From Escherichia coli (GTDB taxonomy: Bacteria > Pseudomonadota > Gammaproteobacteria > Enterobacterales > Enterobacteriaceae), in assembly GCF_003991155.1 (NCBI RefSeq), contig NZ_CP031293.1: 64,000 nt of DNA, one strand, 5' to 3'. The notes under the pieces were generated by a model that saw only the letters and a program-made list of their open reading frames with translations, searched no databases and was not told the DNA's origin. A program made the translations under genes and the position numbers. Position 1 is the first letter of the stretch. The number at the start of each line of letters is the position of its first letter. Shown here piece by piece: positions 10,951-60,590 of this stretch.

Positions 10951-11168
10951 TTATATCAAAACAACTCTTAGTTATTGATAATTAAGATTAACCTCCGCCA
11001 TTAAAATAGTGGGCACTGACGAGCACTCGTTGTGCTTTCTTTGTTTACCATCCCATACTTATCTTCCTGAACATGTTCATATGCCAAAATATCTTCTAAT
11101 ACTTTCGTGACGCTATCCGGTTTATGAAATACACTGATGTAAGATTTTTACTTACAGGCGGGTGTAAA

Positions 11169-11420
11169 ATGGCCAGAACGATGACGGTTGATCTCGGCGA
11201 TGAGTTGCGTGAATTTATCGAGTCCTTAATTGAATCCGGCGACTATCGCACCCAAAGCGAAGTGATCCGTGAGTCGCTGCGCTTACTTCGAGAAAAGCAA
11301 GCAGAGTCTCGCCTGCAAGCGTTACGTGACATGCTCGCTGAAGGGTTGAGTAGTGGTGAAGCTCAGCCGTGGGAAAAGGACGCGTTTTTACGGAAGGTGA
11401 AAGCAGGGATAAGGAAATAA
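11169..11420 (+). CDS. ParD/RHH-family type II antitoxin
   Basis: Small ORF with ParD-like sequence (SEVIRESLRLLREKQ...LQALR..L.EG..SG); in-frame ATG at 11169 chosen from the 11124 ORF; stop 1 nt before the toxin start. Confidence 0.75.
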   Translation: MARTMTVDLGDELREFIESLIESGDYRTQSEVIRESLRLLREKQAESRLQALRDMLAEGLSSGEAQPWEKDAFLRKVKAGIRK

Positions 11421-11421
11421 T

Positions 11422-11718
11422 GTGCGTACTATAAAACTCATGCCAAAAGCCAATGAGGATTTAGAAGGCATCTGGTATTACAGCTATCACCATTTCGGCG
11501 AACCACAAGCCGACAGATATGTGGAACATCTTTCAGACGTTCTCCAGATTCTGAGTAACAATAATATAGGTACGCCCAGACCTGAATTAGGCGAAGGTAT
11601 TTTTGTTCTTCCTTTTGAACGCCACGTAATTTATTTCCTGCAATCGCCAGAGGAAATTATCGTCATTCGTATCCTTAACCAAAACCAGGACGCCTCCAGA
11701 CATTTACACTGGAGCTAA
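11422..11718 (+). CDS. ParE/RelE-superfamily type II toxin
   Basis: 98-aa ORF (GTG start) directly after the antitoxin; ParE-like motifs (EDLEGIWYY...GEPQADRYV...GTPRPELG); alternative ATG at 11440. Confidence 0.75.
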   Translation: MRTIKLMPKANEDLEGIWYYSYHHFGEPQADRYVEHLSDVLQILSNNNIGTPRPELGEGIFVLPFERHVIYFLQSPEEIIVIRILNQNQDASRHLHWS

Positions 11719-11820
11719 ACCCGCCGATTGCGCTACAATGCCCGCCCTTAAAGTGGGGGCACTCCCCTAACCGCTTCATCAGGTGAAGCGGATCTGACCT
11801 GTCATCAGAACGAGAGAATT

Positions 11821-13182: not shown

Positions 13183-13266
13183 TTAATTTCGATTATTTTT
13201 CCCGGATGGAAAATTCTTAGAAACCGATCACATACAGCTGCATTTATTAAGGTTATCATCCGTTTC

Positions 13267-13353
13267 GCTGAAAAACATAACCCATAAAATGCTAGCTGTA
13301 CCAGGAACCACCTCCTTAGCCTGTGTAATCTCCCTTACACGGGCTTATTTTTT
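13267..13353 (+). ncRNA. cyaR: CyaR (RyeE) Hfq-dependent sRNA
   Basis: 87-nt sequence GCTGAAAAACATAACCCATAAAATGCTAGCTGTACCAGGAACCACCTCCTTAGCCTGTGTAATCTCCCTTACACGGGCTTATTTTTT matches my memory of CyaR, including the terminal hairpin and U-run. Confidence 0.85.
13327..13353 (-). other. Phage P2-type attB core overlapping the cyaR terminator
   Basis: Reverse complement reads AAAAAATAAGCCCGTGTAAGGGAGATT, which I recall as the P2 att core; no prophage genes follow. Confidence 0.55.
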
Positions 13354-13511
13354 ATGCATAAGCCCTATCTCTGGTAACCGTCTTCCATTGACCACATCGA
13401 TAGAATCTCCCTTCATAGCACGATGCCTTTCACTTATTGGCATCGTGCTCGCACAGGTTCCGGTTACGCACAGCCAGAACGCGCATGTTTGACGCTTACC
13501 AAAAAATATTC

Positions 13512-14244: not shown

Positions 14245-15144
14245 ATGGCAGAATTTCCCGCCAGCTTACTGATTCTTAATGGCAAAAGTACTGACAATCT
14301 ACCCTTGCGCGAAGCAATTATGCTGTTGCGTGAGGAAGGAATGACGATCCATGTGCGGGTCACCTGGGAGAAAGGCGATGCCGCACGATATGTAGAGGAG
14401 GCCCGGAAGTTGGGCGTCGCAACGGTGATTGCCGGTGGTGGCGATGGCACCATTAATGAAGTTTCTACGGCGTTGATTCAGTGTGAGGGGGATGACATAC
14501 CCGCGCTGGGAATTTTGCCATTAGGAACCGCCAATGATTTTGCCACCAGTGTAGGGATTCCTGAGGCACTGGATAAGGCGCTGAAACTGGCAATTGCCGG
14601 TAACGCCATTGCAATAGATATGGCGCAGGTCAACAAACAAACCTGTTTTATTAATATGGCGACAGGCGGATTTGGGACGCGTATTACCACAGAAACGCCG
14701 GAAAAATTAAAAGCCGCGCTGGGTGGCGTCTCTTACATCATTCATGGCTTAATGCGCATGGATACTCTGCAACCGGACCGTTGTGAAATCCGCGGTGAAA
14801 ACTTTCACTGGCAAGGTGACGCCCTGGTCATTGGTATTGGTAACGGGCGTCAGGCTGGTGGCGGTCAGCAATTGTGCCCGAACGCGTTAATTAACGATGG
14901 CTTGCTGCAACTGCGCATTTTTACCGGCGATGAAATTCTTCCGGCTCTCGTATCAACCTTAAAATCTGACGAAGATAACCCGAATATTATCGAAGGCGCT
15001 TCGTCGTGGTTTGATATACAAGCCCCACACGAAATCACTTTTAATCTTGATGGCGAACCGTTGAGCGGACAAAACTTTCATATTGAAATACTTCCGGCGG
15101 CGTTGCGTTGTCGATTACCACCGGATTGTCCATTATTGCGTTAA
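14245..15144 (+). CDS. yegS: Lipid kinase YegS (DAGK catalytic-domain family)
   Basis: 299-aa ORF with diacylglycerol-kinase-like GGDGT motif. Confidence 0.9.
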
Positions 15145-15225
15145 TCAAACTATTCTCTCTTGAACCAGGGAAAATCCGTAATGCCGGATGCGGTGTAAAC
15201 AACTTATCCGGCATACAGAACAATA

Positions 15226-16005
15226 CTACACCGTAATTAATTTCACTCGTGTCTTCTGCAATGCCAGTTTATCCACCTCTGACACAGCATCGTCGGTAAT
15301 AATAATGTCAATTTTTTCGATTGGCAGTACCTGATTAAAACCGCGACGATTAAATTTCGATGAATCGAGAACGGCAATCACTTTATTTGCGGCTGTGACC
15401 ATCGCCCCGCTAATCGAATAGCCTTCATTAAAGGTCGTAATACCATTAACCGCATCAATACCATCAGCACCGACAAACATTAAATCGGCATTAATATCCT
15501 GCAATGAACGCTCAGCAATGGAGCCATGCATCGAGCGCGTTTTATGGCGGACCGTGCCACCGCAGACGACCAGAGTAATGTCTTTATTTTCGGAAAGGGC
15601 AAATGCTGCCGGGAGACTGTTGGTAATCACCGTGATATTTTTGGCGGTCATTAATCCTTCGGCGATAAGCATTGTCGTACTTCCGCTGTCGAGAATAACG
15701 GTCATCCCTTCGTGGATCATTTTGACTGCCGCCTGCGCTATTCTGTTTTTTGGCGCGCTGGCGAGCTGAAATCGCTCTTTAAACCCGACTTCCTGGGTCT
15801 CGGTTTCACTATTACCGGACATTATTTTCGCCGCACCGCCATGAAAGCGCGTAACCACGCCTTTTTGTTCGAGAAAGCGCAAATCGGCACGGATTGTCGC
15901 TTCCGAGGCAGCAAATACTCCCGCCAGATCCTGAACAAGCACGGTTCCCTGTTCATTCACTAATTGGATGATCTTATTCCTTCGCTCGAATGAATTCATC
16001 GTCAT
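15226..16005 (-). CDS. gatR: DeoR-family repressor of galactitol operon, intact
   Basis: 259-aa uninterrupted ORF with N-terminal HTH and DeoR sugar-binding domain; alternative start at 15999. Confidence 0.85.
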   Translation of the reverse strand: MTMNSFERRNKIIQLVNEQGTVLVQDLAGVFAASEATIRADLRFLEQKGVVTRFHGGAAKIMSGNSETETQEVGFKERFQLASAPKNRIAQAAVKMIHEGMTVILDSGSTTMLIAEGLMTAKNITVITNSLPAAFALSENKDITLVVCGGTVRHKTRSMHGSIAERSLQDINADLMFVGADGIDAVNGITTFNEGYSISGAMVTAANKVIAVLDSSKFNRRGFNQVLPIEKIDIIITDDAVSEVDKLALQKTRVKLITV

Positions 16006-16104
16006 TTACCCATATTCAATTGTGGCTAGTGTAAACGAAGGGGGACCATTGGTGAATGATCTGTTTTGCACAATACCGGGCCAGCATCACGCTGGCCCGC
16101 GGTT

Positions 16105-17145
16105 TCAGGGAATGAGCAACACTTTGCCCGGCATAGCATTACGAGCGATGTCACGCACCGCCTGGGCGAAGCTTTCAAAGCTTCCACGGTGAGCGATTAA
16201 TGGCTCCAGGCTTAACTTACGTTCTGTCAGCAACCGACTCGCCGTTTCCCACTCCTGCCCCGGCCAAGGGCTGGAGTAGTTCATCCAACTGCCGATAACC
16301 GTCAGCTCTTTACGTAATATTTTGCCAAACGTTGTCGATGTTAAATGCAGATCCTGATGCAACGTGCCCACCAGCGTCAGCTGGGCATGAGGCCCGGCAA
16401 TCTCTACCGCCAGTTCGACGGTTTGCGGGACGCCAGCCGTCTCGAGGATAAGCTGATTAAAGCGCAGCTCGCGTAAAACGCCCTGCATTTGCGGCGCGCT
16501 CATTTCAAGGCTGTTAAATGTTTGCATCGCACCGAAAGATTTTGCCAGTGCCAGTTTTTCTGAGCTAATGTCGATTGCCGTCACACTCTTTGCTCCCAGC
16601 GCGACAGCGCACTGAATGGCCAGCAGGCCAATGGTTCCGGCACCAATAATAATAACGTTTTTATTCTCACATCCTTGCGCTAAATGGAACGCATGCAGGC
16701 CAACGGTAATCGGTTCAATAAAAGCGCCATCCTCAATAGGCATATCCGCAGGTAGTGCAAAGACATTGTTTCGCTTAACGACAATATATTCGGCAAATCC
16801 ACCATCACGCCGTGAGCCAATAAAATCATATTTTGCGCACTGGGAATAAAACCCTTTCAGACACTCTGGACAAGTAAAACAGGGTAATAACGGCACACAG
16901 GCAACCGCATCGCCGGGGTGTAAATCATCAACACCGGATCCCACCGCATCAATATAGCCGCTAAATTCATGGCCTAACGTTATTGGATAATAATGTGCAC
17001 CATTTTTAAATATCCTGGGTAAATCGGAACCACATAAGCCCGAGCTTGCAATTTTTACCCGCACCTCATCCTGATGTTTAATTTCAGGAATGACGCTTTC
17101 TGCAACGCGCACGATACCATCAGTATCATTCACCACTGATTTCAT
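16105..17145 (-). CDS. gatD: Galactitol-1-phosphate 5-dehydrogenase
   Basis: 346-aa zinc-type alcohol dehydrogenase fold; gat operon position. Confidence 0.9.
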   Translation of the reverse strand: MKSVVNDTDGIVRVAESVIPEIKHQDEVRVKIASSGLCGSDLPRIFKNGAHYYPITLGHEFSGYIDAVGSGVDDLHPGDAVACVPLLPCFTCPECLKGFYSQCAKYDFIGSRRDGGFAEYIVVKRNNVFALPADMPIEDGAFIEPITVGLHAFHLAQGCENKNVIIIGAGTIGLLAIQCAVALGAKSVTAIDISSEKLALAKSFGAMQTFNSLEMSAPQMQGVLRELRFNQLILETAGVPQTVELAVEIAGPHAQLTLVGTLHQDLHLTSTTFGKILRKELTVIGSWMNYSSPWPGQEWETASRLLTERKLSLEPLIAHRGSFESFAQAVRDIARNAMPGKVLLIP

Positions 17146-17192
17146 AAAAACTCCTGATTGTTAAGGGGGATTACCTCCCCCTCAGGTAAAAA

Positions 17193-18548
17193 TTATTCTG
17201 CGAGAACGGCTTTCTCTTGTTTAATAAAACCACGCGCTCTACGCCAGGTCATGAAAATACCGGTCAGATAAATTGCGCCGATAATAATGAAACCGGGAAT
17301 ATTTTGCGGGGAGAAAACCTGAATCAGTAACCAGGTAATGGGAGAACCGCCCTGATCCATTGAAGCCACCATACCCCCGGCTTTTAACGCGCCCGCATTA
17401 GCCGCCAGTTGGGTGTGCAAACCAATAGTTTGCGTAGCGATCCACAGGGTGATGCTCATAATGATGACACCCGAGATTAAGGTGCGGAACAGATTTCCAC
17501 GATGCACCGCGACCGCCATCGCCACAAAGAAGCCGATGGTGGCAAGGTCGCCAAACGGCAGCACCTGATTACCCGGCACACAAACAGCAATTAAAATGGT
17601 GAGCGGGATAAAAATCAGGCTTGCCGATACCACTGCCGTATGCCCCAGCAACAACGCCGGATCAAGGCCAATCAGGAACTCCTGACCGCCGAACTTCGCC
17701 TGTAAACGACTACGGGCCTGCTTAGCGATGGGCGTTAAACCATCCATGATAGGTTTAATCACCCGTGGCATCAGCAGCATAACTGCCGCCGTTTTTACCG
17801 CCAGCTGCAATACACCTTTGACATCGTAACCCGCAAGGATGCCGATAATCAGCCCCATCACAAAACCCACGGTGACCGGTTCGCCAAAAGGGCCAAATTT
17901 GCGCTGAATATCATCGGCGCTAAATTTAATTCGGTTAACGCCTGGGATTTTCTCGATGATAGCATCGACCAGCACCGCAATCGGCCCCATATACGCCGAC
18001 GTACCGTGCGGAATAGCAATGCCTTCCAGCTCAAAGAAATTTCGGGTATCGCGGGCAAACCAGTCGCCGAGCTTATAAACAAACGCCGCGTGAATTACCA
18101 CACCCGCCATCCCTATCATCCATGAACCGGTTGCCAGATGCAGCAACGCGCCGGTGAAGGTCATATGCCAGATATTCCAGATATCAACATTTACCACCCG
18201 CGTCATACGGGTCAGTAACATCGCCACGTTAACCAGAATCGCAATCGGAATCGCCACCAGCGCAATTTGCGACGCCCAGGTCATGGGTGAAGAGCCCGGC
18301 CAGCCGACATCGACCACATGCAGATTCAGGTCGAAATTTTCCGCCATCGCTTTCGCCGCCGGACCAATGGAATCCAGCATTAAGCCAATCACAAGGCCAA
18401 TGCCAACAAAGCCAATCCCGATATGCAGACCCGCTTTAAAGCAATCGCCTGCCTTCATGCCTAATATTTTAGAAAAAATAATGATGACAATCGGCAGCAT
18501 CACCGTAGGGCCGAGGTCGAGAATATAACGCATGACTTCTGAAAACAT
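17193..18548 (-). CDS. gatC: PTS galactitol-specific EIIC
   Basis: 451-aa polytopic membrane ORF between gatD and gatB. Confidence 0.9.
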   Translation of the reverse strand: MFSEVMRYILDLGPTVMLPIVIIIFSKILGMKAGDCFKAGLHIGIGFVGIGLVIGLMLDSIGPAAKAMAENFDLNLHVVDVGWPGSSPMTWASQIALVAIPIAILVNVAMLLTRMTRVVNVDIWNIWHMTFTGALLHLATGSWMIGMAGVVIHAAFVYKLGDWFARDTRNFFELEGIAIPHGTSAYMGPIAVLVDAIIEKIPGVNRIKFSADDIQRKFGPFGEPVTVGFVMGLIIGILAGYDVKGVLQLAVKTAAVMLLMPRVIKPIMDGLTPIAKQARSRLQAKFGGQEFLIGLDPALLLGHTAVVSASLIFIPLTILIAVCVPGNQVLPFGDLATIGFFVAMAVAVHRGNLFRTLISGVIIMSITLWIATQTIGLHTQLAANAGALKAGGMVASMDQGGSPITWLLIQVFSPQNIPGFIIIGAIYLTGIFMTWRRARGFIKQEKAVLAE

Positions 18549-18551
18549 AGG

Positions 18552-18836
18552 TCACCCCTGTAAGATAGTCAGAATTTTATTTTGTAATGCTTCGATACCG
18601 ACACCAGAAACAAAAGGCATGCCGTGAACTAACGGAATATTGCCAAAACTACGATCTACCCTGGCAGTGGTGCATATCAAATGCACGCCATCCATATAGG
18701 TTTCTATTTCATTAACCCGACACTGGATTAATTCAACAGGAATATTATGACTCTGACACAACTCTTTAATTTCTTCCGCCGCCATCGTAGAGGTCGCAAC
18801 CGCACCTCCGCAAGCGACAATAATTTTGCGTTTCAT
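18552..18836 (-). CDS. gatB: PTS galactitol-specific EIIB
   Basis: 94-aa ORF with N-terminal Cys ([11 protein letters not shown]). Confidence 0.9.
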
Positions 18837-18866
18837 AAATAGTCCTTTTTATTGTTACAGAGGGAT

Positions 18867-19319
18867 TTATTCGTCTGAATCTAAAACATACTTTGTGAAG
18901 TATTCCTTTAACTGGGTTTCAGGAAGAGTGATTAGTGTCTCGACGATATCGGGCTGTTGTAACTTGCCAAATAAACAGCGTAAAAGTTTCAATTGCTGCT
19001 GCGGATTTTCCACAATCAACGCAATAACCAACGATACCGCCACGTCGTTATCATCATCCGCTTGCTGAAAATGAACTTTATTTGTTGGCCTTAACAGATA
19101 AATGGCTGACGACTTAGCATGAATCGCCTCACAATGTGGTATTGCAATGGCGTGCTGCTCAAGCATTATCCCGGTAGGGAATTCTGCTTCTCTGGCAATT
19201 AATGCCTGTGGCCAGGTATCATGAACCACACCTTTCGCGAGCATCTCATTACCGATATGGGTTAAAACTTCGCTACGATCGACAAAAGAAATTCCGCTAC
19301 GAACAAACAGGTTAGTCAT
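18867..19319 (-). CDS. gatA: PTS galactitol-specific EIIA
   Basis: 150-aa ORF in gat operon order. Confidence 0.9.
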   Translation of the reverse strand: MTNLFVRSGISFVDRSEVLTHIGNEMLAKGVVHDTWPQALIAREAEFPTGIMLEQHAIAIPHCEAIHAKSSAIYLLRPTNKVHFQQADDDNDVAVSLVIALIVENPQQQLKLLRCLFGKLQQPDIVETLITLPETQLKEYFTKYVLDSDE

Positions 19320-19328
19320 ATACCGTCC

Positions 19329-21528
<2,200 letters not shown>

Positions 21529-21588
21529 TTAAATGTCGAGATAACGATCACAAAAACGACAATTCGAAAATTAATCAGAATGACAGGC

Positions 21589-21617
21589 AAAAAAACGGCC
21601 TCCCGATAGGGAAGCCG
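21589..21617 (-). terminator. Putative rho-independent terminator of fbaB
   Basis: Hairpin CGGCCTCCC-GATA-GGGAAGCCG followed on the minus strand by a U7 run; approximate. Confidence 0.5.
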
Positions 21618-21701
21618 TAGCAAAGTGCGCGTGTTTTTATGCCGGATGCGACGTAAACGCCTTTTCCGTTATACGGGGTAGTGCTGTTCGTATAAGGCGT
21701 A

Positions 21702-29491: not shown

Positions 29492-29625
29492 AGTTTGCTC
29501 CTGCCATAACGTGAAGAAGCAATGACCTGGTGGTCCGTGACTTCCCTACGCTGGCATTATCCAGATCAGGTGATACGGGTATTTCTCAGCCTTCACGCAG
29601 AAGGGCACCCCGAGTCGTTTGGTTG
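29492..29625 (-). promoter_or_regulatory. TPP riboswitch (thi-box) leader of thiMD
   Basis: Minus-strand leader reads AACCAAACGACTCGGGGTGCCCTTCTGCGTGAAGGCTGAGAAATACCCGTATCACCTGATCTGGATAATGCCAGCGTAGGG, the thiM aptamer as I recall it, followed by the expression platform up to the thiM ATG. Confidence 0.85.
29544..29625. repeat. 82-bp direct repeat, left copy (attL-like); lies within the thiM riboswitch aptamer
   Basis: Perfect 82/82 identity with 37276..37357. Confidence 0.9.
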
Positions 29626-29837
29626 AATCTCTATATTTTGTGCCAGCTTAGGGGAAGTGGCTTGCAGATGCAAGCTCGCCTCCATTAATTGCTTCTTCTC
29701 TGTGTACCCCATTTTGTACCCCATATCAGAAATGAAAAAGAAACATTTAACATCTATCATTCAGATGATAAAAACTATTGATTATCTTAATTTGCTAATT
29801 TATATTATTTATCTAAATTTGATAGGTGAGATAAAAA

Positions 29838-30077
29838 ATGACAGAAACCCAGATCTACGAGAACATTAAGCAAGCCATTAGCAGCGCACCACGAAATAGC
29901 CAAACGATGGAAATGCACCTCCAGATGATCAAATATGCTGACCATCTGAAAAAGGTTACGGCAAAAGAGTTTTGTGAAGGTGTAGGACTTAAAGCCAGCT
30001 TTGGTACAGAGTTCAGCAAAATGAGAAATCTTACCGAGCGACTCAAAGCTGCTGGACTTGACACCACGAAGTTATAA
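29838..30077 (+). CDS. Hypothetical small protein (island)
   Basis: 79-aa ORF with SD-like GGTGAG upstream; no recognised motif. Confidence 0.4.
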   Translation: MTETQIYENIKQAISSAPRNSQTMEMHLQMIKYADHLKKVTAKEFCEGVGLKASFGTEFSKMRNLTERLKAAGLDTTKL

Positions 30078-30242
30078 AAAACAAATCATCAATATATTAT
30101 TTTTGTTTTCCAGACTTACTTGCATATGTTTCTACGAGCATAAAAAACAACAACCACCACATAGCTATTACCATAATAATGTTTTCCTTTTATATTAAAC
30201 AGAGAAATAGAATTAGAGCGTGGAATAGATGAATTCTATTTT

Positions 30243-30488
30243 CTATAACTTCTTGAGGTTGAATGTAGAAAAAGACAGCTCTTTCATTTCAATAACACCG
30301 AAATTTGATAGCTGTTTCAGCCAGAATTTTAAACCTGACTCAGAGCAACCTGCTCGATGTAACACATCGCTATATTTTAGCGGTGTTGGCTTTCCTTTAT
30401 AGAGGTAAACAAGCGTTTCGTAGGTGTGTTTTCCGGTGTCGTTACACTGAATGCGGTCTACTTGATTTTTTACTAAATATTGGATCAT
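30243..30488 (-). CDS. Hypothetical small protein, possible winged-helix (island)
   Basis: 81-aa ORF with AAGGAGG upstream, directly after the 239-aa gene stop. Confidence 0.45.
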   Translation of the reverse strand: MIQYLVKNQVDRIQCNDTGKHTYETLVYLYKGKPTPLKYSDVLHRAGCSESGLKFWLKQLSNFGVIEMKELSFSTFNLKKL

Positions 30489-30499
30489 AGTCCTCCTTA

Positions 30500-31219
30500 T
30501 TAAAATGGAATGTCAAAATCGTCCTCTTCTGTCTCAGGTATCGTGTATATATGTTCTCTTCCTGTAAATTCAGAAACCACTATTGAAATTAGCCTGTATG
30601 CCTCTATTTTATCGCCCTGCGTTTCAGCTAAAGCCCACTCAAGGGCTGCTTCTGTTGGCTGTCCATTCGGTTTGCAAATAGTGACACCGCCCCAAGGAAG
30701 CTCTGTTTTTTCCTGCTGAATAGAGCGTGTTGTTTCTAGTGTTTTTTTATCTTCCGTAGGGGGAAGCTGTTCAGGAACAGCTTTAACAGTAGATACTTGC
30801 TCTGTCTGTGGCTTTTCTGCATTTACAGAGGCTTTCGCTTCTCTTGGTGCTGTAATATGTGCATCTGTAAAGGGTAATGCTTTATAGAGTGATGTTTGAC
30901 CGTGGCGTGCCTCTACAGAAAGAACTCCCATATCAACAAACATATTTATAATATTGCGTACCTGACGATCACTAACCATTCCAATATTAGCTAATGTTTT
31001 TTGAGTAGCGTAACATTCTTGCCCTTGTTCATTGAATCCAGCTATATAGCTATAGATTTCAACGGCTGGCAGTGTAGCGGTGTATTCATTACCAGATGGT
31101 GAGTACCATTTTTTAAACATCTTCAACCATTGCTCAACAACTACATATTTTTGTTTACCATCTTTCTGATTTAGACATTTGGCTTTCGCTTCGGCAATTG
31201 TTTTGATATTTTTGATCAT
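30500..31219 (-). CDS. Putative replication-initiator-like DNA-binding protein with SSB-like acidic C-terminal tip (…EEDDFDIPF)
   Basis: 239-aa ORF with strong AAGGAGG SD; N-terminal wHTH-like segment, P/E/K/T-rich linker, C-terminus DDFDIPF. Confidence 0.6.
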   Translation of the reverse strand: MIKNIKTIAEAKAKCLNQKDGKQKYVVVEQWLKMFKKWYSPSGNEYTATLPAVEIYSYIAGFNEQGQECYATQKTLANIGMVSDRQVRNIINMFVDMGVLSVEARHGQTSLYKALPFTDAHITAPREAKASVNAEKPQTEQVSTVKAVPEQLPPTEDKKTLETTRSIQQEKTELPWGGVTICKPNGQPTEAALEWALAETQGDKIEAYRLISIVVSEFTGREHIYTIPETEEDDFDIPF

Positions 31220-31343
31220 TTAGTTCCTCCTTTGTAAGGACTGTAATTAGTAGTTCATTAACAAGTTTTGGAATTGATTTCCCTTCTGCCTTTGCGCGAT
31301 TTAACAACGCGTTATAAGTTGCAGAGTCAAAATTAATATTCAT
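31155..31343 (-). CDS. Ribbon-helix-helix (CopG/Arc-like) small DNA-binding protein
   Basis: Start at MNINFDSATYNALLNRAKAEGKS with GGAGAGGAGA SD; overlaps start of the Rep-like gene. Confidence 0.55.
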   Translation of the reverse strand: MNINFDSATYNALLNRAKAEGKSIPKLVNELLITVLTKEELNDQKYQNNCRSESQMSKSERW

Positions 31344-31365
31344 TTGGTTTTCTCCTCTCCTGTTA

Positions 31366-31548
31366 TTATTCTTTCTCTGCTTCTGCCTTACGCAGTTCAT
31401 CAATAATCTTGAGTGCATCGTCAAAGCATTTTTCACGCTCTGGATAACCTCGACTCCTTGCCATATTACGATTCATTACTACTTGATGTCGTGTTAACTC
31501 ACCTTTTTTAAATGCCTCTACGACGTGTTCCGGTATAAACCATTTCAT
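31366..31548 (-). CDS. Hypothetical 60-aa protein, first gene of the island's minus-strand operon
   Basis: ATG preceded by AAGGAG at optimal spacing; basic/acidic helical sequence. Confidence 0.5.
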   Translation of the reverse strand: MKWFIPEHVVEAFKKGELTRHQVVMNRNMARSRGYPEREKCFDDALKIIDELRKAEAEKE

Positions 31549-32323
31549 AAAAAACTCCTTATTCAGTTAAAAGAAAAACACCTTGCAAGCCTGACGGCTT
31601 CAAAGTGCATTGATTTTGATTATTTAGAGAAGAATGTTTTTCTGTCCCTCTAGTACCTATTATTACATATAAATAAACATTTGTCAATATCTTTTCATAA
31701 AAAATCAGAACCTTTTCATGCACTTACATTTTTTCTTAGCGATTCGTGCTCTCCTGTGTAGTGCTATTCTTCATTACCAGCTAAAACGCTCTAAAACGCG
31801 TTCTAACGAAGTTTTGATAAAAGCAATACATTCTCTTATGTAATGGCTGTTTAGCTCGCCAGAGGCTTATTTAAGTGGCTTATTTTGTATTTGTTAGATG
31901 ATGATAGATATAAAACAGAGAGTTCTTAGATTAGTTACTTTATAAAACGCTCTGTAAAGCCCTGTAGTGAGTTTATATATGTAGGCAAAGCGGTTTCCAT
32001 TCTCTACCCTGCTTAATGCTGTTAGAGAAGCATTTAGACCCCTTATTTTTAATTACCTAAAGTATCCTCTATACATCTCTGTTATGAAACACCTCTGAAT
32101 CCTTCATAAAACACATTATGACGCAAAGAACACTTTTCTAAGGTGATTCCCTTCCTGAACTCTGTTTCTTGCGTCAGAGAGCTACACAGAGAGCTTATAA
32201 AGCTATTATTAATAATAAAGTAGATAAAGTAAGTAAGATAAGTAAGAAGATTAACTAAGATAGATAAGATTAATAAGATCAGAATTCTCTTTCGGTGTCG
32301 CCTCTGGCTTTTCCACCGAAAAC

Positions 32324-33019
32324 AATTACACGACTACAGAATGTAGGAAGTGAAATTGTATTGAGGCTTAGTGAAATTACACGAGGAAAGCAGAGTGTAA
32401 TTGAGCTTTAGCCGCTCTCTCTTCGAGTAATTACACAACTACAGAGAATAACAGAGTTATTAAATGTAGGAGGGTAATTAAGAGTTAGAGAGAGTTAACA
32501 CGTAAGCAATCAGATGATTGGTTAGGTGATTACTCTTACTGCGCACAGCGCAATAGTATTCCTTCGTGGGCGTTACCGCCAACGATAGTTACACGAAGAA
32601 AGTAACGCTTTGCTTTCGGTGTGAGCGGAACGGGCCAGCCACAAAGCCCGAAAGGTAGCGGAGTAAGGCTGCTTGCCAGAGAGTGGAGCTAACGCCGGAA
32701 GGCAAAAGATCATATATATAGTATAAAGAATATTATTTAATTATAGTATTGGTGGAACTCATTACCTAAGGTAAACCGGAGACCACTTCCAACGGTTAGG
32801 CAACCACTTCCAATTGTGTTATTTCCCCTTTTACCCTAAGTAAATTTTAGCCTTTCGTTACATCCATTTATCACATAGCACTTACCCTGTGTAAATCATA
32901 GAATAATGCTCTCTATTCCCTGTGTAATTCCATACTAAAAAATTCAATGAAAAGTAGTTTAAAAGTGCAATGTTAGCTTTCTTCACTTTTACATCACTTT
33001 CGCTGCGCCTTGTGTAATG
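32324..33019. repeat. Iteron-like repeat cluster (AATTACAC core, both orientations) in a 1.75-kb non-coding region
   Basis: AATTACACGACTACAGA at ~32324 and AATTACACAACTACAGA at ~32429; shorter copies at ~32375 and inverted at ~32396, ~32885, ~32918, ~33008. Confidence 0.6.
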
Positions 33020-33312
33020 CGGCTTACAGAGCACTATCAGAAATTATTGATCAAAAATCAACCTATTATTTGTCGAACAAGTTTTCTTTAATGCAACAAA
33101 AATTATTTTTTCAAAATAAACACACAATTTAATAGCTTGCTAATTTTACCAAAATGTAACTACATGATTCTCATGCAAGAAGTGTAGTGATAAGGCAGGC
33201 TAAATCACCACACTAAAAAACTTCGAATTTCGTAGTGAAAAAAGTACTTTACACACCTAATCAACACGCCCAATAATCACTACACACAAATCAATACAGA
33301 AGAAAAAAGAAG

Positions 33313-33864
33313 ATGGCTAATATTGGATACATTAGGGTATCGACTGTGCAACAAAACACAGACCGTCAATTAGCAGGAGTAACTCTTGATAAAGTCTTTG
33401 AAGATAAAGCGTCAGGCAAGAACACTCAGCGCCCACAGTTTGAGGCAATGATGAACTATGTGCGGGAGGGTGACGTGTTACACGTCCATAGTATTGATCG
33501 CCTTTGTCGTAATACAGCCGACCTTCTGGCAACTGTAGAGCAATTAACAAAGCGCGGCGTGTCTGTGCATTTCCATAAAGAAGACTTTAAGACAGGAAAG
33601 AACTCTCCCGCAGGGAATATGATGCTCACAGTTCTTGCAGCAGTGGCACAAATGGAACGTGAAATGATGCTTGAGCGTCAACGTGAAGGGATCGCCGCAG
33701 CCAAGGCCGCTGGACGTATAGCAAAACGTGGTAATGGAAAAGCAATTGATCGAGCGGGAATTGCTGCCGCTCTCGCGAATGGTGGCTCAATTCGGAGCGT
33801 AGCAAAAGATTTCAGTGTCAGCACGCAGACGGTGCAACGTATCAAGAAAGAGCAGGTGGCGTAA
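33313..33864 (+). CDS. Small serine recombinase (resolvase/invertase family)
   Basis: 183 aa; N-terminal catalytic motif IGYIRVSTVQQNTDRQ with the nucleophilic Ser; C-terminal HTH. Confidence 0.85.
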   Translation: MANIGYIRVSTVQQNTDRQLAGVTLDKVFEDKASGKNTQRPQFEAMMNYVREGDVLHVHSIDRLCRNTADLLATVEQLTKRGVSVHFHKEDFKTGKNSPAGNMMLTVLAAVAQMEREMMLERQREGIAAAKAAGRIAKRGNGKAIDRAGIAAALANGGSIRSVAKDFSVSTQTVQRIKKEQVA

Positions 33865-34030
33865 TGCCTCCTTGATATTTGACAGGGACGGTCGGCAAAA
33901 ATCGGGGCTTGCTGATCTCAGCGTTGAGCGGTTCTTGCAATGGTGCCTAGGTGCTCGCTTGTATTCCCCTTCGATAATCACCACTAAGCCACTTATTGCC
34001 TTGTGGAGTGGCCCGAAAATTACTGATATC

Positions 34031-34531
34031 TTATTGATTCAGTCGATCCCATTTAACCGCAGATACAATTCCCCAATTACCACTAGCATTAGGCCTACGC
34101 CACTTCGCGGTTTCCATTCCACGAAGGTATTCGAGAGCTTCATTGAACGAACTGAAACGTTTCTGGGCTGATTTTTCCCCTACTCTAAACGAACCATCGC
34201 GAGTACTTGCCAATCCTGGATGAAAACACGACCCATCTGCAGCATAAGGAACAAGTACCTCCTGATCATCAGGTTTCCTTGAATCAGAAGCCAGTAACTG
34301 CCAAGGCTCAATACGCAAAGCGTCAGCCAGAACCTCAATTGCATCAAGAGATGCATTAGAGCAACCACGCTCAATTCGACTCATATAACTACGTGCAAAA
34401 CCACACCGATCTGCAAAGGCCTCTTGGCTTAAGCCAATAGCTATACGGAACTCTTTTACTCGTTGTCCAAAAAGGTATCTCAGATTCTTTCGCATGGCAC
34501 AAAGATGCAATTTGACGCACCAATTAACCAC
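34031..34531 (-). CDS. XRE-family HTH regulator with uncharacterised C-terminal domain
   Basis: Cro/C1-type HTH (GLSQEAFADRCGFARSYMSRIERG); likely start at internal Met (34495). Confidence 0.7.
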   Translation of the reverse strand: MVNWCVKLHLCAMRKNLRYLFGQRVKEFRIAIGLSQEAFADRCGFARSYMSRIERGCSNASLDAIEVLADALRIEPWQLLASDSRKPDDQEVLVPYAADGSCFHPGLASTRDGSFRVGEKSAQKRFSSFNEALEYLRGMETAKWRRPNASGNWGIVSAVKWDRLNQ

Positions 34532-34605
34532 GCACTAATCGTGACATTTTGAATCAATCATGTATTATTAGCATCACCATCCATTTGACACACCAAGGGA
34601 GACAA

Positions 34606-34953
34606 ATGAAAAAACTAGTATTTGCCGCTTTGTTAATTCCAGTGATGGGCCACGCCACAACCTTTTCCTGTAAAGCAATACAGGAAGGTCATATTGACTC
34701 GGGAAGTCAGAAAGTTTCTGTAGATTCAACTTTTGATATACAAGATAAAAAAATGACCATAAATCTTGGCGGTAAAACTTGGAGACTTGATTTGGTAGGT
34801 CAAAAAAGCATCGCAAAGATGTATGCTACACCTGACGGAGGGGTTGCAGCCACATACATTGACAATGGCAGTATACCGATATTTGTATTACGCCCTTCTA
34901 ATCCCGATGGGGAGATGGCTGTTTACACATTGAGTATGTGTTCTGAAGTATGA
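34606..34953 (+). CDS. Small secreted protein of unknown function
   Basis: Start at MKKLVFAALLIPVMGHA (signal peptide) with AAGGGAGA SD; divergent from the XRE gene. Confidence 0.6.
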   Translation: MKKLVFAALLIPVMGHATTFSCKAIQEGHIDSGSQKVSVDSTFDIQDKKMTINLGGKTWRLDLVGQKSIAKMYATPDGGVAATYIDNGSIPIFVLRPSNPDGEMAVYTLSMCSEV

Positions 34954-35030
34954 TTGATCGGCGTGATATTCACGCCGTTTTTGGGGAAATTTGTATATTG
35001 AAAAATATAGAAATAGAACTTTTATCAAGC

Positions 35031-35756
35031 CTATTTATTAACAGGTAGTAATGTCAGATCGCCATAATGGGCTTGTCTATGGCAATTAGGACATAATGCA
35101 ATAGCATTTTCCACAGAGTCCTCCCCCCCCTTTGAAAGCCACTCAATATGATGAACTTCTAGAAATGGAGTACCATCTTCCTTTAGAAAAGGAGCATCTC
35201 GCTTACAATATTGACATTTTCCATTTGCACTCAAAAGAACTTCAGCAACTACATATGGGCTTCGTTTATAAACTCGTGTTGTTACTTCGATTAGTTCCGG
35301 GATTTTACTTTCTGTCGCTAAAATTTGCTTTCGTTCCACTGAAGATAATTTTGCAGCCGTCTCAACAGCTTCTTCGAAAACCGATTTTACTTGACGATAA
35401 CGCCACATCCCTTCTAAATCCTGGTATAATTCCCAAATACCGTGCACAGATGGTTGATAGATTTCAAAAATATTTCCACGCTTGAACAATCGGTCATACT
35501 TATGATGCCGATGAGTTACATCATCAGTTCGTCGGGCAGTTTTGTTGAAACTCCAGTAGCTCCGCTTACAATTAACTGTATTAGCAATTAAATTGAGCCA
35601 AGTATTATCTTTATAAGATGGAAATAGCTTTCTAAGATAATCATCTACCTGCTTAGCCGTTGCAGCCCCACCAAACTGATTAGCAATTATCTGTATGGTA
35701 ATAGCTCTTATCGGTTGATCGCCATACTTGTATTTTTTGCCTAAATTTTTAACCAT
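35031..35756 (-). CDS. HNH endonuclease, McrA-like C-terminal nuclease domain with distinct N-terminal domain
   Basis: C-terminal CQYC...EVHHIEWLSKGG...NAIALCPNCHRQAHY zinc-finger HNH motif, similar to what I recall of E. coli McrA; ~150-aa N-terminal region unrecognised. Confidence 0.75.
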   Translation of the reverse strand: MVKNLGKKYKYGDQPIRAITIQIIANQFGGAATAKQVDDYLRKLFPSYKDNTWLNLIANTVNCKRSYWSFNKTARRTDDVTHRHHKYDRLFKRGNIFEIYQPSVHGIWELYQDLEGMWRYRQVKSVFEEAVETAAKLSSVERKQILATESKIPELIEVTTRVYKRSPYVVAEVLLSANGKCQYCKRDAPFLKEDGTPFLEVHHIEWLSKGGEDSVENAIALCPNCHRQAHYGDLTLLPVNK

Positions 35757-35884
35757 AGAAGACTCACTAAGCCTAAATTCATCTTAAGTTATTATTGTAA
35801 ATTAGTTGTGAAAATTTTTGATCTCAGACAATAAAAATCTACAAATTATTAGCTGGTTATACACTAAGAAGGATACACGAATAA

Positions 35885-37222
35885 CTAAGTCTCCCAACAA
35901 AGACCATCGATCACATAACAAACGGTGGAAAGTGGGAATGTGTGCAGATAACGCTGGGTAATCCCTACTCCACTCTTTTCATGACCTACCACCTGTTGCA
36001 GATGCGCCAAATTACTCACCCAACCAGCTAAACAAGTAGAAATCATAGTATGCCGGAAACTATGCACCAAGCGCCGCTGCCCATAATCATCAAGATAAGG
36101 AATATCAAGCTGATCACGAACATCTGAAAGAACTTTACCTATCTTTGACATATTTCGACCTGAGACTTCCGAAAAGATTTTCTCTTTCCATTGGCGGTTA
36201 ACAAAATCCAGAAACCCCCACTCAATCAGTTTGGGATGAATCACTACCTGTCTTGTAGCATTCTCAGTTTTACCCAGCCTTCTTTCCGCGATCAGAAGAT
36301 AGTGCCGCTGGCTATCTTCATCAAATTTGATCTGCGACTTCTCCAGTTTAGCAATCTCACCTCTTCTGGCTCCTGTGTACGCCAACAACAAAGTGATCCA
36401 CTTCTGCCATCCATCAGGCTGCTTTAGTGCCCATCCTACAAATTTTTTCATTTCTGCTGCACTGTATGCACCAAACCTAGCTTTGGATGGTGCCGCTACT
36501 ATTCCATCAGTCGGAGACTTAGATAGAATATCTTTGTTTTCAGTCAGAAATGTTTTGAATAACGATTTGTAGATTTTAAGGTGCTTATGTACAGCCTCAG
36601 CACCAACTAAATCCTCTGGCAGCACATCATCACATTCGATTAGTTGCTGAATAGTCATTGACCTATACGGTTGCACTACACGCTTTGGTAAGTTTTCGAC
36701 AGTTTCCATTACTCGCTTAATATCTTGTTTGGTGATTGCCGTTACGTCTGTTTCTTTTCCCAAGACAACAAGCAATACCTCCATATAACGCTCATTTGCC
36801 ATTGAGATCGATTTTGTCCAATTTCGACCTCTTTCCTCCTTGTACATAGCCCACGCATCAGCAAGTGTTAGCACCTTTTCCGGTTTGGCTGGTGGTTGAA
36901 GCTGCAAAACTTCTTTAGAAATATTGTTCAATTGCTGAGGGAGTGGCAACGGAATCATTACGTTACGTGACGAAGCGATCAAGTTTGAAACAAACTTATT
37001 AAATTGTGGCAACGGAGTAGCGAGTGATTTAACGAAAGGAATGTGCGGAGTAAGGCCAATCATCAACGCCGATGCTTCGCGATAACTGTCAGTAAAAAGT
37101 GATTTTTTGTATATCCGACCATCCGAAAGCCGGATTTGTAGATAGTAATTACCGTTTCGCTGAAATGTGTATGGGAGAGTTCTTGACCTCATAAACGCCC
37201 CCTTTTTGTACCTTAACAGCAT
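35885..37222 (-). CDS. Tyrosine site-specific integrase
   Basis: 445 aa; C-terminal catalytic region with HSFRHT and GITQRYLH; starts 53 bp from the right direct repeat. Confidence 0.85.
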   Translation of the reverse strand: MLLRYKKGAFMRSRTLPYTFQRNGNYYLQIRLSDGRIYKKSLFTDSYREASALMIGLTPHIPFVKSLATPLPQFNKFVSNLIASSRNVMIPLPLPQQLNNISKEVLQLQPPAKPEKVLTLADAWAMYKEERGRNWTKSISMANERYMEVLLVVLGKETDVTAITKQDIKRVMETVENLPKRVVQPYRSMTIQQLIECDDVLPEDLVGAEAVHKHLKIYKSLFKTFLTENKDILSKSPTDGIVAAPSKARFGAYSAAEMKKFVGWALKQPDGWQKWITLLLAYTGARRGEIAKLEKSQIKFDEDSQRHYLLIAERRLGKTENATRQVVIHPKLIEWGFLDFVNRQWKEKIFSEVSGRNMSKIGKVLSDVRDQLDIPYLDDYGQRRLVHSFRHTMISTCLAGWVSNLAHLQQVVGHEKSGVGITQRYLHTFPLSTVCYVIDGLCWET

Positions 37223-37275
37223 GATTTATGGTCAAAAAGAGATACAACCACATAATTTTCAAGACTATTTTGGCC

Positions 37276-37357
37276 CCCTACGCTGGCATTATCCAGATCA
37301 GGTGATACGGGTATTTCTCAGCCTTCACGCAGAAGGGCACCCCGAGTCGTTTGGTTG
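37276..37357. repeat. 82-bp direct repeat, right copy (attR-like); duplicate of the thiM aptamer segment
   Basis: Identical to 29544..29625; followed by native sequence leading into rcnR. Confidence 0.9.
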
Positions 37358-48384: not shown

Positions 48385-51300
48385 ATGAGACACTTTATCT
48401 ATCAGGACAAAAAATCACATAAATTCTGGGCGGTGGAGCAGCAAGGCAACGAGTTACATATCAGTTGGGGCAAAGTCGGCACTAACGGGCAAAACCAGGT
48501 AAAAAGCTTTGCTGATGCTGCGGCAGCGGCAAAAGCGGAGCTTAAGCTGATCGCGGAGAAAACGAAAAAAGGCTATGTGGAAAATGCTTCAGCAAACGTG
48601 CATATCCCCCCCATCACCAAAGCCACTCCTGAAGTTAAAACTCCCCCTGTGAGTCAAAATAAACACCCATGGCTGGCTGATGATGCAGTCATTCCTGTCA
48701 CTGACGATATTAATCGATTTGCTTTTCCACATCGCTCTCGCCCCAGAGAGATCAATTATCTGCACAAAGATGGTCAAATATGGCAGCGCATTGCGAATAA
48801 CACCAGGGCATATGACCCCGACAATAATTACCGCTCTTATCCTGAAAACTGGCAGCAAGCGTTTGCCGAGTTACAAAGTCGAATTCTGGACAATCAACAA
48901 ACAGGGAGTGCGCAATCTGATGCGGCATTGCTCTGGAGTTTTTGGAACTCTTACTCTGCAGATGAACTGGTCGATGACTTAGTCATTCGCTGTGGTCTGG
49001 AAAGTGCCGTTGAAATCGCCCTTTTTGCTCTTCAACTCAAATATAAACCAGTAAAAGGCGCAGTCACCACCATCATTCCACCTGGTCACAAAGCAGAATC
49101 GCTACCGAGTTGGCATCAACGTCTATGTCATCATCTTTCACTCGCTTCAGAAGATGAGTGGCAACGCTGTGTGAATAAAGTGCTTACTGCTATTCCGACG
49201 CTATCCCCAGCACGGCAACCTTTTGCGGCGTTACTGCTCCCTGAACGCCCGGATATTGCCAATGCTATGGCTCTACGTTACGCAGACCAAAACGTTCCGG
49301 CGATGACCTGGTTAAGACTGGTAGTAACCGATGATGCCGCTCTGACTGCAGCAGAAAAATACGACTTCCCACCGTTATATCGTGATTTTCGCGCTTATCT
49401 GGCAATGTTGCTGGCAAATAATGGGGTGAGCGGTGTAAGCCGGATACTTACTGAGTTTGTGGAAGAGCATTCTGACAATCCCACTTATCTCTTCGAGCGC
49501 ATCAGCGAGACTGAAGATCTTGTCAAATGGTTATGGAAAACGAATCACCCGGATGCGATTCAAATTCTGATCCTCGGTGTAATTGGCAAGAAAAAGCACC
49601 TGGAATACTTAAGCAAAGCCTGTCAAAAACATCCCGCTGCGGCTATTGCCGCTTATGCAACTTTGCTGGCAATACATGAAGATGCACAGTGGCGCAACGC
49701 GCTTGTCAAACTGGTTACCGTCACGCCAGAGTTGGTATGTGACGTCATTCCCTGGGTTAATGCTAAAGCGGCAGGCATCTTATCTGAATGTCGTCCGCAG
49801 CCAGTAGCTGAAGAATGTGAATATGCCACTGTGGATATGTTGCCGGAGCTGTTTGTTTCGCCGCCCTGGATGACCAAAGAGAAAAAGAAAAATACGCCTG
49901 TGTTTGATCTTCCAGTGCTTCCAGTTCCTTCTGTTTCTGATGTCACTCCCGAGATTGCCAAAAGACTAACCCGTACTTACCTTGTCACCCGCTTCCAGCA
50001 AATAGCCCAACAGCAGGCGACAAAACAAACATTGTTTACCGACCTGCCGCCGATAAAAAAAGCAAGCTGGGAGAAACACTTAATACCGCTTACACCGGAG
50101 CAACAAATACTGTGGCATCTTGGTTTTGAAAAATGGCGGGAAAGCGGAGAAAAAATCTACGAAAAAATTCCGGCGCCACAAAGCGCCGTTGATGCCCTGC
50201 TACGCTTCGATTTTCCAGCACTCAATGCTGAATTTGTGCAATACCATAACAATGCATACAAAAGCTGGAATCTCATTGCCCTCTGTTACCTGCCTGGTCA
50301 ACAGGCCATTTCTTTTCTTAACCAGATAGTCAAAGAAGATAACTACTCTGATGAGGGAAATATTCTGGCAATTTTTGGTAGCGCCGCCATACCTGCATTT
50401 ATGACCTGCCTGCAACGTGATCCACGACGTCTGTGCTTCTTCCCCTTTTTCCTCGGTGTCAGTGACCTGGCCTTACCGATGGCGCAACAATTACAGAAAA
50501 AAATGTCTTATGACGATGCGCGAAACTGGCTGACTGATTACCCGCGCCATGCCGCCGCCGGACTGCTTCCTGTAGCACTGGGTAAACACTGCCAAAATCG
50601 GGAATATGCCCGCCAGGCGCTCCGCCTGCTGGTGAATTTAAACCAACGAGAAACGATTGAGGAAATCGCCCGGGGGTATAACCAACCAGATGTTTTAGCT
50701 GCGCTGGCAACATTGTTCGATAGCGACCCACTGGAAGAATATCCTGCAAAAATCGCCCCATTGCCCGGCTTTTATCAGTTCACCTTATGGCGCAGACCAC
50801 GGCTTAAAAGTAACAATCTGCCTCTGTCCGATGACGCTATGCGCCACCTGGGCACTATGTTGAGCTTCCCTCGCGACATTACCGCCTACGCTGGACTGGA
50901 TATCATTAGAGAAATCTTCACCCGGGAATCACTGGCTGACTTTGGCTGGGATCTCTACACGGCATGGATGGAATCTGGCGCGCCCGCAAAAGAAAACTGG
51001 GCATTTACCTCGCTGGGGATTTTAGGCAATAACGACACCGCGCGTAAACTAACCCCGCTTATCCGGGCCTGGCCGGGTGAATCCCAGCATAAACGCGCGG
51101 TTTCTGGGCTCGATGTGTTAGCCAGTATCGGTAGCGATATTGCGCTGATGCTGCTTAATGGCATTGCACAAAAAATTAAATTCAAAGCATTGCAGGAACA
51201 TGCCCGCGACAAAATCAATATGGTCGCCGAAAATCGCGGATTGACAATGGCCGAACTGGAAGACCGCCTGGCTCCAGATTTAGGGCTTGATATCAACGGC

Positions 51301-52185
51301 TCGCTGATACTTGATTTCGGCCCACGTCAATTCACCGTTGGTTTTGACGAAACCTTAAAACCTGTAGTGCGCGATGCAAACGGCAAGGTCCTGAAAGATT
51401 TACCCAAACCAAATCAGAGCGATGATAAAACACTGGCAACTGACGCCGTTAACCTCTTTAAACAATTGAAGAAAGATGTTCGTGCTATCGCCAGCCAGCA
51501 AATTACCCGTCTGGAACAGGCTATGTGCCAGCGCAGACGCTGGACGACAGAGCAGTTCCGCCTGTTCATGGTGGAGCACCCACTGGTACGTCACTTAACC
51601 CGACGACTGTTATGGGGGGTATATACTGAGGAAAACACGCTGATTGCCTGCTTCCGGGTCGCAGAAGACAGCACTTACAGCGATATGCAGGATGAGCTAT
51701 TCACGCTACCAGCAGGAAACATCGGTATTCCGCATATGCTGGAAATCCCCCCTGAATCTGCCGCTGCATTCAGGCAAATTTACGCTGATTACGAACTGCT
51801 CCCCCCCTTCCAACAGCTCGATCGTGGTAGTTATCGTCTTGCTGATAATGAACGGAATACCCACGAACTGACACGCTGGAGCGGACGCCTTTGCCAGGCA
51901 GGGCGCATTGTCGGGCTAGAGCGCCGAGGTTGGCAACGTCTGGAAGAAAGCGGCAGCGTCTATGCGATGCGCAAATCTACTCCTTATGGCGATCTCGAAC
52001 TTGAAACAGAACATTTTTCATTAATTTATGGCGAAACAGGTTATGGCGACCTGTTACCTGTTGAAAGCGTAAAAATCACCTCGCCAGATGATCGCTACGG
52101 TAAACAACCTTTACTTACTTTTTCCATGCTCGACGACATCACCGCCAGCGAGCTGATTAACGACATTGAATCATTGTTTGATTAA
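48385..52185 (+). CDS. WGR-domain / DUF4132 large protein, paralog 1 (MolR-like)
   Basis: 1266-aa ORF; N-terminal WGR-like motif (KFWAVEQQGNELHISWGKVGTNGQ); C-terminal region shared with the next two genes. Confidence 0.85.
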   Translation: MRHFIYQDKKSHKFWAVEQQGNELHISWGKVGTNGQNQVKSFADAAAAAKAELKLIAEKTKKGYVENASANVHIPPITKATPEVKTPPVSQNKHPWLADDAVIPVTDDINRFAFPHRSRPREINYLHKDGQIWQRIANNTRAYDPDNNYRSYPENWQQAFAELQSRILDNQQTGSAQSDAALLWSFWNSYSADELVDDLVIRCGLESAVEIALFALQLKYKPVKGAVTTIIPPGHKAESLPSWHQRLCHHLSLASEDEWQRCVNKVLTAIPTLSPARQPFAALLLPERPDIANAMALRYADQNVPAMTWLRLVVTDDAALTAAEKYDFPPLYRDFRAYLAMLLANNGVSGVSRILTEFVEEHSDNPTYLFERISETEDLVKWLWKTNHPDAIQILILGVIGKKKHLEYLSKACQKHPAAAIAAYATLLAIHEDAQWRNALVKLVTVTPELVCDVIPWVNAKAAGILSECRPQPVAEECEYATVDMLPELFVSPPWMTKEKKKNTPVFDLPVLPVPSVSDVTPEIAKRLTRTYLVTRFQQIAQQQATKQTLFTDLPPIKKASWEKHLIPLTPEQQILWHLGFEKWRESGEKIYEKIPAPQSAVDALLRFDFPALNAEFVQYHNNAYKSWNLIALCYLPGQQAISFLNQIVKEDNYSDEGNILAIFGSAAIPAFMTCLQRDPRRLCFFPFFLGVSDLALPMAQQLQKKMSYDDARNWLTDYPRHAAAGLLPVALGKHCQNREYARQALRLLVNLNQRETIEEIARGYNQPDVLAALATLFDSDPLEEYPAKIAPLPGFYQFTLWRRPRLKSNNLPLSDDAMRHLGTMLSFPRDITAYAGLDIIREIFTRESLADFGWDLYTAWMESGAPAKENWAFTSLGILGNNDTARKLTPLIRAWPGESQHKRAVSGLDVLASIGSDIALMLLNGIAQKIKFKALQEHARDKINMVAENRGLTMAELEDRLAPDLGLDINGSLILDFGPRQFTVGFDETLKPVVRDANGKVLKDLPKPNQSDDKTLATDAVNLFKQLKKDVRAIASQQITRLEQAMCQRRRWTTEQFRLFMVEHPLVRHLTRRLLWGVYTEENTLIACFRVAEDSTYSDMQDELFTLPAGNIGIPHMLEIPPESAAAFRQIYADYELLPPFQQLDRGSYRLADNERNTHELTRWSGRLCQAGRIVGLERRGWQRLEESGSVYAMRKSTPYGDLELETEHFSLIYGETGYGDLLPVESVKITSPDDRYGKQPLLTFSMLDDITASELINDIESLFD

Positions 52186-52197
52186 AAGGATTTAGCA

Positions 52198-55992: not shown

Positions 55993-56001
55993 GGAAAGAA
56001 C

Positions 56002-59634: not shown

Positions 59635-59694
59635 ACCACAGCGGGCAGTGATGCGACTGCCCGTTATTAACACGACCTGCCACCGGGAAAAGCG

Positions 59695-60015: not shown

Positions 60016-60068
60016 CTTTATTAAAGAGGGAGACGGTATTCCCCCTTAGATGCGTTTCAATTTGCCCG

Positions 60069-60469: not shown

Positions 60470-60590
60470 AGGTTTTTTTATTTACTGTGATCTGCTTTCC
60501 AGATATTTTCCGCTCAAACAACTAATGCGCCAAACATTTATTGCGCGTAAAATATCGTTTATTTCATTAATACATTTCAGGGATGAATAT

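Follow-up and report, generated by a model that had tools for sequence, protein, structure and literature searches.

Does the Escherichia coli strain from which this DNA comes carry a working gatR, the regulatory gene that an insertion sequence disrupts in K-12, and, if so, is its galactitol operon likely to be under normal control? We explored this question in the window, that is, the whole 64-kb stretch of DNA that was analysed, and conclude with high confidence that the ORF in question is a wild-type, functional gatR allele encoding the DeoR-family repressor of the galactitol PTS/catabolic operon gatYZABCD.

The initial annotation described a continuous DeoR-type ORF of 259 aa, without giving its strand, and this description is confirmed by the ORF list and by Pfam matches to HTH_DeoR and DeoRC. 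The ORF, at 15226..16005 of the window, lies on the minus strand and runs unbroken from ATG to stop, with no internal stop or frameshift; the E-values of the two domains (below) discount a chance ORF. Both PGAP and the MG1655 RefSeq record place the start at the second ATG (MNSFERR...), six bases inside the maximal ORF. A weak Shine-Dalgarno-like GGG, read from the sequence, precedes the second ATG by 9 nt but the first by only 3 nt, a difference in spacing that makes the annotated start the more plausible one, and the choice between 259 and 257 aa leaves the intactness of gatR unaffected. The gene and its domains are as follows:

15226..15999, minus strand, gatR coding sequence as annotated by PGAP on identical DNA (257 aa plus stop, WP_001295426.1)
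15826..15984, minus strand, HTH_DeoR (PF08220), N-terminal DNA-binding domain (Pfam E=1.3e-16, residues 8-60 of the 259-aa ORF)
15292..15753, minus strand, DeoRC (PF00455), C-terminal sensor/effector-binding domain (Pfam E=2.5e-51, residues 85-238 of the 259-aa ORF)

For the sensor domain, the nearest solved structure by sequence match is the effector domain of E. coli DeoR (7l6l, E=1.9e-11), which is also the only solved structure matched by the GatR sequence.

The name gatR must come from synteny, given that PGAP labels the product generically, as a DeoR/GlpR family regulator, in both FDAARGOS_497 and 2016C-3878. This generic name reflects the lack of a GatR-specific model in NCBIfam and, there being no curated profile, orthology rests on synteny together with direct comparison to K-12 and HS. 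The gene immediately follows gatD, closing the gatYZABCD cluster, and is flanked by yegS and fbaB; the order yegS, gatR-gatDCBAZY, fbaB is common to MG1655, HS, BL21(DE3), FDAARGOS_497 and 2016C-3878. Furthermore, BLAST and annotation show both MG1655 gatR fragments to be colinear with the window ORF. Position, colinearity and DeoR-type domains thus support the assignment of the ORF to gatR in the initial annotation. It could be argued instead that the ORF encodes a DeoR-family paralogue, AgaR- or SrlR-like and serving another sugar system, which merely adjoins the gat operon: in the absence of a GatR model, the best NCBIfam matches are to AgaR (NF040755 equivalog, 232.9 bits) and SrlR (NF007753 equivalog, 226.3 bits), with the DeoR profile scoring 84.2 (cut-off 244). 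However, the AgaR and SrlR scores fall beneath their curated cut-offs of 260 and 350, respectively, the ORF is colinear with the annotated K-12 gatR and identical to it in protein sequence, and the protein is also identical to that encoded by the HS allele, which has been shown to control gat, so that a paralogue at this position is exceedingly improbable.

The disruption of gatR in K-12 by an insertion sequence, as stated in the initial annotation, is correct, and both the MG1655 record and inspection of the junctions identify the element as IS3E. In the MG1655 annotation, gatR (b4498) consists of two fragments split by a 1258-bp IS3E (insE5/insF5), which sits after codon ~100 and is accompanied by a 3-bp GTC target duplication. 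Alignment to K-12 gatR, proposed as a check in the initial annotation, shows that the window spans the IS3E site unbroken; removal of IS3E and one GTC copy from the K-12 gene yields a 780-nt ORF, the product of which is 100% identical over 259 aa to that of the window. The gatR::IS1 allele of BL21(DE3) represents an independent event in the same gene at the same locus, ~65 bp nearer the N-terminal end than the K-12 site and with a 9-bp target-site duplication. Both sites are unoccupied in the window:

15701..15703, no strand assigned, empty IS3E target site GTC (MG1655 annotation, BLAST breakpoints with a 3-bp overlap, junction sequences)
15766..15774, no strand assigned, empty 9-bp IS1 target site of B/BL21(DE3) (BL21(DE3) annotation, BLAST breakpoints with a 9-bp overlap)

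Sousa et al. (PMC5850726) in one sentence give the K-12 insertion as IS1, an identification that is ruled out by the MG1655 record and by direct inspection, in which IS1 in gatR was seen only in the B lineage and IS3E in K-12; a 2026 preprint also names the K-12 insertion IS3E (bioRxiv 10.64898/2026.01.05.697630). That the gat operon is constitutive in K-12, as the initial annotation also stated, accords with the literature, which associates gatR disruption with gat expression that is constitutive or elevated (PMC5850726; PMC3045373; bioRxiv 10.64898/2026.01.05.697630). In particular, MG1655 is reported to express gat more highly than does a K-12 strain in which gatR is undisrupted (PMC3045373).

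Divergence from K-12 is uneven across this region (window 15101-16200), with 96.7% identity over yegS and the 3' portion of gatR, rising to 99.8% over gatD and the 5' portion of gatR. This abrupt shift within gatR suggests a putative recombination breakpoint near the IS3E site.

How common the intact gene is can be gauged from a census of 5426 complete E. coli genomes, conducted with a 201-bp central gatR query of which either laboratory insertion leaves less than 80% covered. This central segment, the only part of the gene that the census reads, so that frameshifts or insertions outside it are invisible, is uninterrupted in 4725 of the 5426 genomes (87%); it is interrupted or truncated in 382 and has no match in 319. 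The interrupted set includes 345 genomes with the K-12 gatR::IS3E junction, all of them laboratory strains among the matches listed, and about 34-35 with the B gatR::IS1 junction at 100% identity, which are BL21-type laboratory strains. Given that some 380 of the 382 interrupted genomes contain the exact K-12 or B junction, two laboratory alleles explain essentially all interruptions of this segment, and the disruptions of central gatR by insertion sequences in this collection come essentially from two laboratory lineages. In E. coli, the intact gene is both ancestral and prevalent, with the K-12 and B laboratory strains being the exceptions. Because intactness is the default of the species, a point missed in the initial annotation, the intact gatR of this strain is unremarkable: it is an ordinary wild-type gene, already described in the literature.

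Is this ordinary gene also an active one? The 257-aa product is 100% identical to GatR of E. coli HS (WP_001295426.1). Compared with the wild-type GatR of HS or of rebuilt K-12, the protein, its position and its orientation are the same, whereas the DNA differs at 16 nt, all of them synonymous. When the HS allele was used to replace the MG1655 pseudogene, the resulting strain still used galactitol and its operon was regulated (Sousa et al. 2017, PMC5850726). New IS insertions in the restored gatR re-created constitutive mutants in mice (PMC5850726). The pattern of IS disruption across complete genomes fits such experiments, in which loss of regulation arises readily, and suggests that the mutants do not persist in natural isolates. 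Furthermore, in a CRISPRi study, silencing of gatR strongly affected the fitness of the clinical strains LF82 and CFT073 in the mouse gut, with no signal in MG1655 (bioRxiv 10.64898/2026.01.05.697630); natural gatR alleles are therefore active.

The diversity of natural alleles leads in the same direction. Nine gatR alleles, chosen to span the diversity found in a sequence search, contain 44 segregating nucleotide sites, only 2 of which are replacements, both conservative (I196V in CFT073 and E241D in an O157 strain), against ~180 synonymous and 591 non-synonymous sites. At the sequence level, this indicates strong purifying selection on natural gatR alleles. The same GatR protein is encoded by alleles that differ at up to 23 synonymous sites, an observation that also bears on a different concern, namely, that the intactness of gatR is an artefact of assembly masking an IS insertion or a frameshift. 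Such an error is hardly credible, considering that the gatR DNA is 100% identical in two independent complete genomes, FDAARGOS_497 and 2016C-3878, and that the window aligns colinearly with E. coli 2016C-3878 over its full 64 kb, at 99.99% identity and with 7 mismatches. FDAARGOS_497 is more distant, with ~98% identity over the whole window and without a 7.65-kb island discussed below, whereas its gatR region is 100% identical over 1.1 kb.

The structural operon and its control region contain the following features:

16105..21474, minus strand, gatYZABCD operon, all six genes intact (ORFs and PGAP annotation of 2016C-3878, without pseudogene flags)
16105-17145, minus strand, gatD
17193-18548, minus strand, gatC (full 451 aa)
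18552-18836, minus strand, gatB
18867-19319, minus strand, gatA
19329-20591, minus strand, gatZ
20620-21474, minus strand, gatY
21475..21594, minus strand, gat control region, from the fbaB terminator to the gatY start (promoter/terminator scan; conserved in comparison with K-12, HS and FDAARGOS_497)
21485..21492, no strand assigned, candidate operator half, downstream arm TGTCGTTT as read on the plus strand (8-bp perfect inverted repeat)
21554..21561, no strand assigned, candidate operator half, upstream arm AAACGACA as read on the plus strand (same repeat, 61 nt from its partner)

Internal stops are absent from the translations of the structural genes, which differ from those of HS at 0-18 aa; gatC, which is frameshifted in MG1655, is intact in the window. 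Because the protein is that of the functional HS allele, all six gat genes are intact and the promoter-proximal region is conserved, we strongly infer that the strain retains galactitol-regulated gat catabolism.

The ~120 bp between the fbaB terminator and gatY are conserved save for a few SNPs and a 2-bp indel. A promoter scan predicts a sigma-70-like promoter at 21539..21510 (-35 TCGACA, 18-nt spacer, -10 CATTAT), and a TGTGA motif that overlaps its -35 can be read as a putative class II CRP site. The 8-bp inverted repeat formed by TGTCGTTT and AAACGACA brackets the core promoter and is invariant in 4/4 strains aligned. The motif TGTCGTTTW has 3 matches in the 64 kb, 2 of which are these arms, and at least 3 matches occurred in 12 of 100 shuffles; the count is thus not significant window-wide, and the inverted repeat is only a candidate operator. 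A mapped E. coli GatR operator was not found in the searchable literature, the scope of which excludes the original 1996 description of gatR.

Several positions in the control region distinguish the window from K-12 and HS. The -10 region reads CATTATGTT in the window versus CATTATATT in K-12/HS, an A-to-G change; in addition, there is the 2-bp indel, located upstream, and TTTTCGAA is found here in place of TTTTCATA in K-12/HS, and ATCGAAAAT in place of ATCGAAAAC. The TTTTCGAA variant lengthens an inverted repeat to 11 nt (I1, TTTATTTTCGA/TCGAAAATTAA). This longer, flanking repeat was given no weight as an operator, its upstream arm not being conserved in K-12, HS or FDAARGOS_497. Separately, the spacer between gatY and fbaB is shorter by 78 bp than that of K-12/HS and has one REP unit fewer (window 21619-21660). 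The missing unit falls between the stop codon of fbaB and its terminator (21618-21595), and we rejected the shorter spacer as a promoter change: it is a difference in REP copy number, upstream of the fbaB terminator and outside the promoter.

On these grounds, a scheme of regulation can be proposed. In the absence of galactitol, the N-terminal HTH domain of GatR would bind operator DNA at the gatY promoter and keep the operon off, with the inverted TGTCGTTT/AAACGACA pair around the -35/-10 possibly serving as the operators. Galactitol entering via the GatABC PTS would give rise to a phosphorylated intermediate, which would bind the DeoRC domain and release the repressor; the analogy of other DeoR regulators makes galactitol-1-phosphate or tagatose-6-phosphate the likeliest candidate. 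cAMP-CRP would then probably aid activation of the promoter. The analysis shows which gene this is, that it is uninterrupted, that it encodes the same protein as an experimentally functional allele, that its target genes are intact and that it is under purifying selection; we infer the operator positions, the inducer, the role of CRP and the phenotype of this strain.

Alternatively, gatR could be intact and regulation nevertheless altered, with polymorphisms in the gatY promoter/operator rendering the operon leaky, constitutive or silent. The differences from K-12/HS described above, together with the lack of a mapped operator in the literature searched, lend this alternative some substance. 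However, all 4 strains aligned preserve the candidate operator 8-mers, the TGTGA motif and the -35/-10 framework, and further isolates of clinical and animal origin, 2016C-3878 among them, have an identical gat locus throughout. Moreover, the strong purifying selection on GatR implies that, in natural lineages, the repressor functions in concert with its operator. We therefore regard altered regulation as improbable. A more specific proposal, that the TTTTCGAA extension and the -10 difference give GatR an operator occupancy in this lineage unlike that in K-12/HS, is likewise a long shot. If it were true, the tightness of repression would be a tunable, lineage-specific trait, with a bearing on the trade-off in gut adaptation, where gat regulation is repeatedly lost and regained. 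A wild-type gatR governing a conventionally regulated operon remains our preferred reading.

The initial annotation also stated that the window contains no transposase ORF. Narrowly, this stands: PGAP annotates none in the interval of 2016C-3878 that matches the 64-kb window, and no IS1 or IS3 similarity, at the DNA level or translated, is found in these 64 kb. The statement misses, however, a 7.65-kb AT-rich integrative island at 29626-37275 (GC 34-45% versus about 50-55% in the flanks) that encodes an integrase and a recombinase and is present in about 80 of the 5426 complete E. coli genomes. Its features, with the riboswitch copies at its two ends, are:

29526-29622, minus strand, TPP aptamer beside thiM (Rfam 71.2 bits)
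33313..33864, plus strand, resolvase-type serine recombinase
34031..34495, minus strand, XRE/control-protein-like HTH protein
35031..35756, minus strand, HNH endonuclease-type protein (C-terminal region matches the PADLOC Type IV methyl-directed restriction enzyme model, E=1.9e-23)
35885..37222, minus strand, tyrosine integrase gene
37259-37354, minus strand, TPP aptamer directly upstream of the integrase gene (Rfam 61.3 bits)

The island is inserted in the TPP riboswitch of thiM, 82 bp of which have been duplicated as direct repeats (29544-29625 and 37276-37357), hence the two TPP aptamers found by Rfam. Judging from this arrangement, thiMD is severed from its original promoter by the island. 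The native promoter side of thiM now faces the integrase-proximal aptamer, so that expression of the integrase might proceed through a thiamine-sensing leader. Further cargo (29838-37222) comprises HTH_36 and HTH_73 proteins and small hypothetical ORFs. No transposase domain was found in the HTH proteins of the island, the integrase, the recombinase or the HNH protein; a 79-aa HTH-like ORF considered as a transposase fragment was rejected, as it matches only HTH_73 and has no DDE/transposase domain. From its gene content, the island may be a small defence island. About 1.76 kb of it (window 31550-33310) contain no ORF of at least 60 aa and no Rfam match; a plasmid collection yields only partial matches, of which the larger falls in a record of chromosome size (4.9 Mb). 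This ORF-poor stretch could consist of decayed genes or of an unrecognised non-coding element.

Several other loci were noted in the window. A ParD/ParE-family type II toxin-antitoxin pair is located at ~11125-11719 on the plus strand, between yegP and yegQ, and is absent at this position in HS and in the K-12 derivative examined. The CyaR sRNA is present at 13265-13350 on the plus strand (Rfam, 100.7 bits); K-12 has a P2-like remnant after cyaR (ogrK and yegZ; cryptic prophage PR-X) that is absent from window 13183-13511. Three tandem large DUF4132 genes, two of them in addition to yehI, occupy window ~48385-61000, compared with two in FDAARGOS_497, and the extra copy accounts for the gap at 48582-52180 in the alignment to that genome. 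In the yehK-yehL intergenic region, a match to the OrzO-P antitoxin sRNA (60404-60479, plus strand; Rfam 102.8 bits) suggests a zor/orz-type type I toxin-antitoxin locus, which is unannotated in the colinear genome.

Beyond correct annotation, the intactness of gatR matters little. Behaviour of the gat system derived from MG1655, with its constitutive expression and the gatC frameshift of the reference, should not be assumed for this strain.

Among related regulators, AgaR, the repressor of the GalNAc/galactosamine operon, regulates a related PTS and the tagatose-bisphosphate pathway. The window GatR aligns with the AgaR profile over its full length (residues 3-259 to profile positions 2-256) and consists of the same two domains; AgaR nevertheless differs, in that the score of 232.9 bits is sub-threshold and the context in the window is gat rather than aga. 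SrlR/GutR, the repressor of the glucitol operon, and DeoR are likewise DeoR-family repressors of catabolic operons for sugar alcohols or sugar phosphates and, relative to the window GatR, are paralogues, not orthologues.
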